Below, in pieces: positions 16,173 through 17,070 of a DNA stretch of 17,070 nt (position 1 is the first letter of the stretch; the number at the start of each line of letters is the position of its first letter). The notes under the pieces are model-generated. The model did no database searches. It was not told the DNA's origin and was given only the letters and a program-made list of their open reading frames with translations. The stretch lies in the IMG/VR virus record IMGVR_UViG_3300044546_001014. The stretch is one strand, 5' to 3'. The translations under genes and the position numbers were made by a program. The DNA comes from a virus.

Positions 16173-17070
16173 TTACACCACTCGGAAATTTTTGAATTGC
16201 CAGGGATCAGTTGTGTCCACATCTTCCACAAACAACCTGCCACGATCTTTGAGTGGAGTCCAATCAGTCCAAGAGCCAGTCATTTGCCCCATGTAGGGAT
16301 CTGTTATGGCTAGGATTTGTTCATGAGGCAGTTCATCAGCTTCCACAATACCCAGCATGGGATTGTCAATGGCATACAAAATGCCTGCCAGCACTGGGGC
16401 CACCACTTGTAGGCTGGTGGCATTGTTGTAGGGGGCTAGAGATCTGGCTGTATCAATGTCCAGTTGGCTGCCATACCAGTAGGCATAGTGATTGCCGTTG
16501 AAAGTTCCCATCAACAACACCCCCAGTTCATCCATGCCATCCTCAATTTCATTGACAATCAAACGCTGATGTGTTTGTTGTTGGAAATTTTTACCTGCCA
16601 TTTCATGAATGCTCAGCACAGCACTGTCACAGGGGTGATAGGCATAGTGAACAGTGGGTCTGTAATAATGATTGCTGAAATAATCACCAATGCTGATACT
16701 CTCATTGTGAGTGATGATCCATCCACGATATTCTCCCTCATTGGGTGTCCAACTGCGGCATTGTGTCACACATCCAGGTCTGTTCAGCCAAATGGCTGTT
16801 TTGCATCCCCAGCTGAATCTGTTGCCATCTGTGGGAAACATCTGTTCGTGCGTTCCCCAGCTCATTTCACTGGGTTGCAGTCCCTCACTGACAAATCCAT
16901 CAATACTCCAGGTATTGACAAATTCATCTCTTTGTTTGGGGGCTCTAGGACGTTGAGTGTCTCTTTCAGCAATGTGGATCACCTTCAATCCCAATGTCTG
17001 GGCCAGTTTGCTCCATGCTTGCTGGGTTTGGGGAGGTGCAGATATTGCATGGTTTACCTGGGCAGCAACA
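16173..17070 (-). CDS. hss: homospermidine synthase (HSS), C-terminal ~298 aa; the N-terminus lies beyond the window edge
   Basis: The frame is open to the window end; the listed 'M' is a TTG. Blocks GLKVIHIAERDTQRP, VNTWSIDGFVSEGLQPSE, ITHNESISIGDYF, YRPTVHYAYHPCDSAVLSIHEM, DELGVLLMG..NHYAYWYGSQL, NATSLQVVAPVLAG, GIVEADEL and DPWQFKNF match bacterial and chlorovirus homospermidine synthase, as judged from recalled sequence. Confidence 0.7.
   Translation of the reverse strand, partial: VAAQVNHAISAPPQTQQAWSKLAQTLGLKVIHIAERDTQRPRAPKQRDEFVNTWSIDGFVSEGLQPSEMSWGTHEQMFPTDGNRFSWGCKTAIWLNRPGCVTQCRSWTPNEGEYRGWIITHNESISIGDYFSNHYYRPTVHYAYHPCDSAVLSIHEMAGKNFQQQTHQRLIVNEIEDGMDELGVLLMGTFNGNHYAYWYGSQLDIDTARSLAPYNNATSLQVVAPVLAGILYAIDNPMLGIVEADELPHEQILAITDPYMGQMTGSWTDWTPLKDRGRLFVEDVDTTDPWQFKNFRVV

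Follow-up and report, generated by a model that had tools for sequence, protein, structure and literature searches.

A bacterial-type homospermidine synthase gene in DNA assigned to an uncultured huge phage

Results

Organization of the locus

The window, meaning the whole 17,070-nucleotide stretch of viral DNA analysed here (IMG/VR record IMGVR_UViG_3300044546_001014), ends at its right edge inside a gene for homospermidine synthase (HSS). On the minus strand, a frame without stops runs from position 17069 to a TAA codon at 16175-16173, base 17070 being the last base of the codon that precedes HSS codon 170, and the remaining two minus-strand frames are rich in stops. The part contained in the window comprises 298 codons plus the stop, corresponding to codons 170-467 of a 467-codon ORF. 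An earlier reading, made from the sequence only, had placed HSS at 16173-17070 and noted that the gene leaves the window edge. Its coordinates are exact; no strand was given there, and the gene proves to lie on the minus strand, with 169 N-terminal residues indeed absent from the window. On the same strand, the HSS gene is followed by a promoter-like site, a 53-aa ORF, a 243-aa ORFan, a 48-aa ORF, a gene for the N-terminal catalytic domain of TilS (TilS-N), a gene resembling that of major vault protein (MVP) and a hairpin. The main features are as follows.

16173..17070, minus strand: 3' part of the HSS gene (translation, PDB matches)
16137..16165, minus strand: sigma-70-like promoter match, TTGACA-17-TATATT, 11/12 (consensus match only)
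15927..16088, minus strand: 53-aa ORF, with a 75% identical counterpart in L002, the closest relative
15169..15900, minus strand: 243-aa lineage-specific ORFan, at the position between HSS and TilS-N where gene content varies
14941..15087, minus strand: 48-aa ORF; its C-terminal 22 residues (14944-15009) share 95% identity with the C-terminal end of an R2K ATP-grasp protein
14335..14937, minus strand: 200-aa PP-loop ATPase, TilS N-terminal catalytic domain (Pfam, TIGR02432)
11805..14294, minus strand: 829-aa MVP-like gene (Pfam: MVP shoulder and vault repeat)
11752..11777, minus strand: strong intrinsic-terminator-like hairpin immediately downstream of the MVP-like gene (11 pairs including 8 G-C, then a T-run)
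3441..7364, plus strand: 1307-aa tail-fibre/tail-spike-like virion protein (Pfam, PHROG, tandem repeats)

The promoter-like site lies directly after the HSS stop codon and points toward the downstream co-directional genes; the count of sigma-70-like sites in this region is not above shuffled expectation. The MVP-like gene is the last of the co-directional string that starts with HSS, and the hairpin behind it may mark the end of a transcription unit. The only matches to the MVP-like protein among GenBank phages come from three uncultured genomes of 462-735 kb (LR756500/1/3), with 37% identity. The TilS-N protein is recognized by Pfam ATP_bind_3 (E 1.7e-30) and by TIGR02432 (122.5 bits against a cut-off of 93.6), and its GenBank phage relatives, 43-44% identical, are found in uncultured phages of 634-642 kb and as the tilS product of Pseudomonas jumbo phages of the PA5oct group. 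In most related phage loci TilS-N adjoins HSS or lies within about 2 kb of it, with varying genes in between. We also considered a PP-loop enzyme that uses a polyamine, comparable to archaeal agmatidine synthase. This idea is not supported because the protein passes the curated TilS N-domain equivalog cut-off and because the gene between PP-loop protein and HSS is variable. Translation-related genes recur near HSS, namely TilS-N, PTH2 and, directly upstream in L002, L010 and L011, an RF-1/PCRF-domain gene.

The slot between HSS and TilS-N is occupied in the collinear contig L003 by an R2K-family ATP-grasp amidoligase. In L029-L032, the same slot holds a gene of about 270 aa that ends in the 22-residue tail also found in the 48-aa ORF; based on position and tail, it is probably the same R2K ATP-grasp gene. 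As judged from this tail, the 48-aa ORF of the window is a remnant of a lost R2K ATP-grasp gene, fused to a signal-peptide-like start. The 243-aa ORFan matches no model of Pfam, PHROG or NCBIfam, and just two homologous clusters were found among 5.8 billion proteins. The possibility that it represents a divergent ATP-grasp partner of HSS, analogous to the glutathionylspermidine synthetase gene (gss) of phage Motura, was rejected, as it does not resemble the R2K protein encoded by L003, has no family match and has only these two homologous clusters. With the R2K gene reduced to 22 codons, an unrelated 243-aa ORFan and variable intervening genes, there is no sign that HSS depends on a conserved partner in this phage.

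Recovery of the N-terminal half from near-identical contigs

An exact 43-mer from the 5' part of the HSS gene gave no match in the viral and metagenome contig collections. Source contigs were found via exact look-up of the neighbouring PP-loop protein rather than via HSS DNA. The exact PP-loop protein of the window is present in 97 blocks of the metagenome collection, representing the same phage in many samples, and the longest contigs that carry it belong to the 20-50 kb class (26.6 kb for L007). Contig L006 (JGI 3300042517, 16.3 kb) is 99.9% identical to window positions 5002-17070 and extends 4.2 kb beyond the right edge; L007 and L008 are 99.5% and 99.6% identical to the window DNA, respectively. 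The HSS ORF of L006 (positions 3728-5131) encodes 467 aa, of which the C-terminal 298 match the window fragment without a single difference. The N-terminal NAD-binding half discussed below, including N155, is thus taken from this near-identical contig and lies outside the window molecule. Extending the gene to recover its N-terminal Rossmann half had been proposed in the sequence-only reading; done via L006, it regained the 169 missing residues together with a GxGxxG motif (ILGFGSIGSG, residues 9-18).

Identity and predicted active site of the HSS

Searched against PDB sequences, the window fragment matched 14 distinct chains, every one an HSS. The best match was the Legionella pneumophila enzyme (2ph5, E 3e-98, chain residues 184-471 of 480), and the Blastochloris viridis enzyme (BvHSS, 4plp) was matched at E 7.5e-98. 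The full-length protein aligns end to end with both, covering residues 6-466 against 2ph5 (E 5e-138) and residues 7-465 against BvHSS (4xq9, E 1.6e-135), the latter being one of the comparisons that the sequence-only reading had suggested. Pfam identifies Sacchrp_dh_C in the fragment (E 4.4e-23), and related HSS proteins also bear Sacchrp_dh_NADP. Neither NCBIfam nor PHROGs contains a model that matches the protein, so the family assignment is based on PDB, Pfam and homologue searches. An HSS derived from deoxyhypusine synthase (plant EC 2.5.1.45, bacterial SpeY) was rejected, as Sacchrp_dh_C is the only Pfam family found and all PDB matches are of the bacterial type.

In BvHSS, the conserved substrate-binding and catalytic residues are N162, E210, W229, E237, H296, E298, Y323 and D361, and the variants N162D, E237Q, H296S and E298Q are without activity (Krossa et al. 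2016, PMC4725965). An alignment of 118 sequences shows that all eight residues are kept in the protein studied here, as N155, E204, W223, E231, H290, E292, Y311 and D349. The codon of N155, the equivalent of BvHSS N162, lies outside the window and the other seven lie inside it:

16965-16967, minus strand: E204 (BvHSS E210)
16908-16910, minus strand: W223 (BvHSS W229)
16884-16886, minus strand: E231 (BvHSS E237)
16707-16709, minus strand: H290 (BvHSS H296)
16701-16703, minus strand: E292 (BvHSS E298)
16644-16646, minus strand: Y311 (BvHSS Y323)
16530-16532, minus strand: D349 (BvHSS D361)

The entrance-loop residues E117 and Y123 of BvHSS are likewise kept in this protein. Two positions differ from BvHSS: D94 of the so-called ionic slide is replaced by Asn, in a family column made up of 43 D, 42 E and 32 N, and E232 is replaced by D, in a column that is variable within the family.

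An AlphaFold2 model of the window fragment, built from a 47-sequence alignment, has a mean pLDDT of 93.8. Foldseek superimposes it on BvHSS with a query-normalized TM score of 0.94 and an rmsd of 1.6-1.9 Å, compared with TM scores of 0.48-0.57 for carboxyspermidine dehydrogenases (about 10% identity), 0.42-0.47 for saccharopine dehydrogenase and 0.35 for lysine dehydrogenase. Saccharopine, carboxy(nor)spermidine and lysine dehydrogenases gave no sequence match to the window HSS even at E<=10. With PDB matches confined to HSS, the complete set of eight active-site residues and the close structural agreement, the HSS assignment made from the sequence only is borne out. The alternative named there, a protein that fits saccharopine or carboxynorspermidine dehydrogenase better and has lost the HSS residues, fails because these sister dehydrogenases show no sequence match and low TM scores and because the active-site residues, whose check had been proposed, are all present.

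Probable phage origin of the window and phylogeny of its HSS

The chief sign within the window that the DNA is that of a phage is the 1307-aa virion protein, our main evidence on this point. The protein has collagen repeats, a 17-aa unit that occurs 28 times and, at its C-terminus, a Peptidase_S74 chaperone domain, and it matches PHROG families of virion structural proteins (E 8.7e-172) and tail spikes (E 3.1e-147). Other window genes encode an IS605-type TnpB, a HAD_SAK_2 phosphatase, a dCMP deaminase, a Dps/ferritin-like protein, a PTH2-like peptidyl-tRNA hydrolase, an HNH homing endonuclease and many ORFans; further PHROG matches are to homing HNH, dCMP deaminase and transposase families. 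No tRNA genes or Rfam families were found in the window. Megablast of the whole window against GenBank phages gave no matches, and neither the 17 kb window nor the 4.2-7 kb beyond its right edge (L006, L007) contains terminase, portal or capsid genes. The phage assignment is therefore made via one structural gene, the gene content and synteny with viral contigs.

The gene order HSS, TilS-N, MCD-like, PTH2 is common to the window and the IMG/VR contigs L028-L032 (35-310 kb), and the window is collinear with the ORFan-rich metagenome contigs L003 and L015 (168-173 kb) as well as with L108, from a 42 kb contig. The HSS proteins of the 168-173 kb contigs are also encoded on contigs of up to 462-485 kb, that of L003 on contigs of up to 462 kb. 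Together with the tail-spike gene and the huge-phage relatives, these shared gene orders uphold the phage origin assumed in the sequence-only reading, and we regard the evidence, drawn from gene content and comparison, as strong but not complete.

Among 5.8 billion sequences, the nearest HSS proteins are unnamed metagenome proteins with 68-88% identity over the fragment, and named bacterial HSS proteins (Reyranella, Acidocella, other Alphaproteobacteria and an Acidobacteriota MAG) follow at 61-66%. The window HSS and 48 other proteins form a 49-member clade with a neighbour-joining (NJ) bootstrap of 99/100. Clade context was examined for members from seven places in the clade and for six IMG/VR loci (L028-L033). 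Five of the seven places are clearly phage-like (L002, L003, L013, L015, L108) and two are ambiguous (L024, L025), a PrkA/DUF444/SpoVR operon adjoining HSS in L024. In the two adjacent sister clades, HSS is found among ABC transporters, TCA-cycle genes and sigma-54, neighbours that mark these clades as bacterial. The HSS proteins of phages phiRSL1 and Motura are placed far from the window clade. The simplest reading of these NJ trees, in which bacterial sampling is limited, would be a single HSS transfer from bacteria to the ancestor of the phage lineage, separate from that of phiRSL1. A genome-contig scan with the HSS protein returned three loci only; it depends on exact peptide words and is uninformative on donors.

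It is conceivable that the HSS is genuine and the DNA itself bacterial, originating from a chromosome, a genomic island or a degraded prophage, in which case the gene would belong to ordinary cellular polyamine metabolism. HSS is common in bacteria, with the enzymes of Reyranella, Acidocella and others reaching 61-66% identity, the window carries a TnpB/IS605-type transposase and lacks, like the adjoining 4.2-7 kb, terminase and capsid genes, and a PrkA/DUF444/SpoVR operon adjoins the HSS of L024. Against this stand the absence of housekeeping genes from the window, the presence of the tail-spike-like gene, homing endonucleases and many ORFans, and synteny both with IMG/VR contigs reaching 310 kb and with ORFan-rich contigs. 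The MVP-like gene, moreover, has its relatives within the phage collection only in huge phage genomes, and the 99/100 bootstrap separates the HSS clade from the clades with bacterial context. We therefore consider bacterial DNA highly unlikely.

A giant eukaryotic virus has to be weighed as a source as well. Viral HSS is best known from the Nucleocytoviricota, chloroviruses and several Imitervirales encode the enzyme (PMC9992855), collagen repeats and a vault-protein-like gene are reminiscent of eukaryotic viruses, and the related contigs are very large. Giant-virus HSS proteins are only 26-36% identical to that of the window, compared with 60-66% for bacterial ones, and the relatives found in the GenBank phage collection were all deposited as phages. 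The window also encodes a TilS catalytic domain, lysidine being a bacterial tRNA modification, an IS605-type TnpB and a protein with phage tail-spike PHROG matches. TilS and TnpB, along with near-consensus sigma-70-like promoter matches and an intrinsic terminator, point to a bacterial host, and a giant eukaryotic virus is scarcely credible as the source. A phage remains the preferred assignment.

Selection and proposed function

The HSS ORF is intact in all relatives examined. For HSS, pairwise dN/dS is 0.07 in the comparison with L002 and 0.12 in those with L003 and L010 (the L010 protein being about 92% identical over its full length), indicating strong purifying selection. With a probability that we put at roughly 85%, the window ends in a functional, bacterial-type, NAD+-dependent HSS (EC 2.5.1.44 type) that serves as an auxiliary metabolic gene of an uncultured huge phage. 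The catalytic activity of the protein is inferred from homology, active-site residues and predicted fold.

The reaction scheme of EC 2.5.1.44 is established. By homology to BvHSS (Krossa et al. 2016), tightly bound NAD+ would oxidize one putrescine, yielding a 4-aminobutanal/imine that stays bound to the enzyme. This intermediate would be handled by W223 and by the Glu-His-Glu triad (E231-H290-E292), the triad presumably acting as general base and W223, again by analogy with BvHSS, stabilizing the cationic intermediate. A second putrescine would then attack, so that the aminobutylidene unit is passed on, and the resulting imine would be reduced by the newly formed NADH. The net reaction would convert two putrescine molecules to sym-homospermidine and ammonia. 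During infection, host putrescine would in this way be turned into a triamine; supply by the host is assumed because no putrescine-producing gene was seen near HSS. Homospermidine could replace spermidine in translation and in the charge neutralization of nucleic acids. What the phage uses it for is a matter of speculation, candidates being support of translation, neutralization of the charge on a very large packaged genome and escape from host control of spermidine. The roles put forward in the sequence-only reading, DNA condensation and host manipulation, are equally speculative.

The protein might alternatively combine an HSS fold with a shifted activity, acting on another amine donor or acceptor (such as cadaverine, 1,3-diaminopropane or spermidine) or providing a polyamine for conjugation by an amidoligase, so that homospermidine would not be the relevant product. 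Such shifts have a precedent in phage homologues of AdoMetDC that have turned into ADC or ODC (PMC9992855). The R2K ATP-grasp amidoligase between HSS and TilS in related phages, the clustering of hss with gss in Motura and the Asn at the position of BvHSS D94 could be taken in the same sense. The eight substrate-binding and catalytic residues as well as E117 and Y123 are unchanged, however, the protein is about 50% identical to characterized HSS enzymes with a TM score of 0.94, and it is under strong purifying selection. All that is left of the R2K gene in the window, furthermore, is its last 22 codons, so the HSS found here is independent of R2K. A shifted activity thus appears distinctly unlikely, and synthesis of homospermidine is the favoured prediction.

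A broader proposal would view HSS as a vertically inherited part, rather than a sporadic passenger, of a translation-support island (TilS-N and PTH2, with RF-1/PCRF directly upstream and R2K directly downstream of HSS in close relatives) of a freshwater huge-phage lineage, in which homospermidine tunes host translation and, together with an ATP-grasp enzyme, might feed a new polyamine conjugate or macromolecule modification. We consider this proposal unlikely.

Comparison with known homospermidine synthases

Phage-encoded HSS, its enzyme family and its mechanism are already known. The HSS of phiRSL1 is functional and Motura encodes an HSS homologue clustered with gss (Li et al. 2023, PMC9992855). 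These are the only two HSS genes among GenBank phages, their products being 45% (phiRSL1) and 36% (Motura) identical to the window fragment. In IMG/VR, at least 114 contigs encode HSS relatives. The 80 IMG/VR loci kept from the scan fall into four to six identity clusters, 55 of them clustering with phiRSL1, and the eight active-site residues are invariant in all 80 phage HSS homologues. With two described phage examples and this number of contigs, the rarity of viral polyamine synthesis was overstated in the sequence-only reading. In the literature library searched, no paper connected homospermidine with huge phages or megaphages, and a single one, on Borgs, mentioned major vault protein together with huge phages. 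The window HSS represents a distinct, apparently lineage-wide huge-phage clade within a known type of viral auxiliary gene. It adds a well-supported, apparently lineage-wide case of polyamine biosynthesis in very large phages, which have hundreds of kilobases of DNA to neutralize and carry an unusual load of translation genes. The IMG/VR contigs and their several clusters also show that, judged by the two cultured examples, the frequency of HSS in uncultured phages would be greatly underestimated.

The closest characterized counterparts are the HSS enzymes of B. viridis (4PLP/4XQ9) and L. pneumophila (2PH5), which are about 48-52% identical to the window HSS (TM 0.93-0.94) and share with it the NAD site, the Glu-His-Glu triad and the cation-pi tryptophan. 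Both are cellular enzymes. Carboxy(nor)spermidine dehydrogenase, saccharopine dehydrogenase and lysine 6-dehydrogenase have the Rossmann and Sacchrp_dh_C superfamily architecture in common with the window HSS, but are only 8-11% identical to it.

Within phages, the HSS of phiRSL1, a 231 kb jumbo phage of Ralstonia (ORF110, BAG41554), is likewise of the bacterial type, has a similar length and possesses the same eight active-site residues. It is, however, only 42-45% identical to the window HSS, belongs to a different identity cluster and has different gene neighbours (topoisomerase IB, NUDIX and dCMP deaminase); its position in the trees, far from the window clade, argues for a separate acquisition. 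The HSS of Achromobacter phage Motura (QDH83686, 221 kb genome) is also phage-encoded and is 36-37% identical to that of the window. Its gene is clustered with that for glutathionylspermidine synthetase, whereas the window retains only the 22-codon ATP-grasp remnant. In giant viruses, the best BFVD matches are the HSS proteins of Hyperionvirus (36% identity, TM 0.87) and Tupanvirus soda lake (26%, TM 0.65). The HSS proteins of Harvovirus and Tupanvirus, like that of phiRSL1, make homospermidine when assayed (PMC9992855). Giant-virus HSS thus belongs to the same enzyme family and fold as the window HSS, but to lineages of eukaryotic viruses, at 26-36% identity.

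Genes downstream of HSS

The following reading frames lie downstream of the homospermidine synthase (HSS) gene in the window:

14941-15087 (conserved part 14944-15009), minus strand: 48-aa ORF with a C-terminal match to the gene that separates HSS from TilS in phages of related type
14335-14937, minus strand: stand-alone N-terminal catalytic domain of tRNA(Ile)-lysidine synthetase (TilS-N), 200 aa, scoring above the curated TIGR02432 cut-off
11805-14294, minus strand: major-vault-protein (MVP)-like gene, 829 aa, with Pfam MVP_shoulder (3.7e-19) and Vault_3

Over its final 22 residues, the 48-aa ORF shares 91-95% identity with the C-terminal end of the gene that related phages carry between HSS and TilS; in the collinear metagenome contig L003, this is an R2K ATP-grasp gene. 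The ORF looks like a deletion remnant joined to a signal-peptide-like N-terminus. The 22-residue tail is far better conserved than the flanking genes (56-73% identity); this high conservation could also come from a signal required for TilS expression.

The metagenome collection lists a protein identical to TilS-N in 97 of its blocks, and relatives are found in 634-642 kb phages as well as PA5oct-like Pseudomonas jumbo phages. Within the GenBank phage collection, the MVP-like protein has matches in no more than three genomes, all from uncultured phages and 462-735 kb in size, at 37% identity. The MVP-like gene adjoining TilS-N is kept in the close relative L002 and in each of the near-identical contigs L006-L009.

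Genes upstream of HSS

In the closest relatives, whose HSS is 84-88% identical to the window fragment, a short RF-1/PCRF-domain gene lies directly upstream of HSS:

L002, 4141-4845 (two separate gene calls, which might represent a frameshift)
L010, 605-937
L011, 13-345

This gene is missing immediately upstream of HSS in the window's own phage (L006, L007). On the upstream side of HSS, 5-7 kb past the right edge of the window, the near-identical contig L007 (1-1074 and 1406-1966) has an Amidoligase_2 (glutamine-synthetase-like) gene, identified by a weak match, together with Hydrolase_2 cell-wall hydrolase and methyltransferase genes. A GGACT/AIG2 gamma-glutamyl cyclotransferase gene is found near the HSS locus in L002 and L003.

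Other genes of the window

45-1193, plus strand: IS605-type TnpB (OrfB_IS605 and Cas12f1-like TNB domain; PHROG transposase, E 1.5e-92)
1245-1742, minus strand: HAD_SAK_2 phosphatase
3441-7364, plus strand: tail-fibre-like gene with tandem and collagen-like repeats (4307-5729 and 3781-3940)
8798-9265, plus strand: PTH2-like peptidyl-tRNA hydrolase

HAD_SAK_2 is associated with 'Swiss army knife' RNA repair; with the PTH2-like protein and TilS-N, it gives this genome region a flavour of RNA and translation maintenance. Thg1, YqeY and Zeta-toxin/AAA_33 kinase genes are present in related loci (L013, L108). TnpB is located at the left end, and no accompanying TnpA was seen in the window. In the tail-fibre-like gene, a 51-bp (17-aa) unit is repeated in tandem about 28 times, in addition to the Gly-X-Y repeats. 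Aligning the gene with its counterparts in the near-identical contigs L008 and L009 suggests that repeat copy number varies among samples.

Comparison with known systems

Bacterial TilS possesses C-terminal tRNA-binding domains, whereas TilS-N of the window is without them. dCMP deaminase genes were located as follows:

window, 1803-2267: dCMP deaminase gene
L069 (Ralstonia phage phiRSL1), 8343-8717: dCMP-deaminase-like gene near hss

Such a gene recurs in the phiRSL1-like viral contigs from IMG/VR (L040-L092) no more than about 1-2 kb from hss, while in the window the two genes are 14 kb apart.
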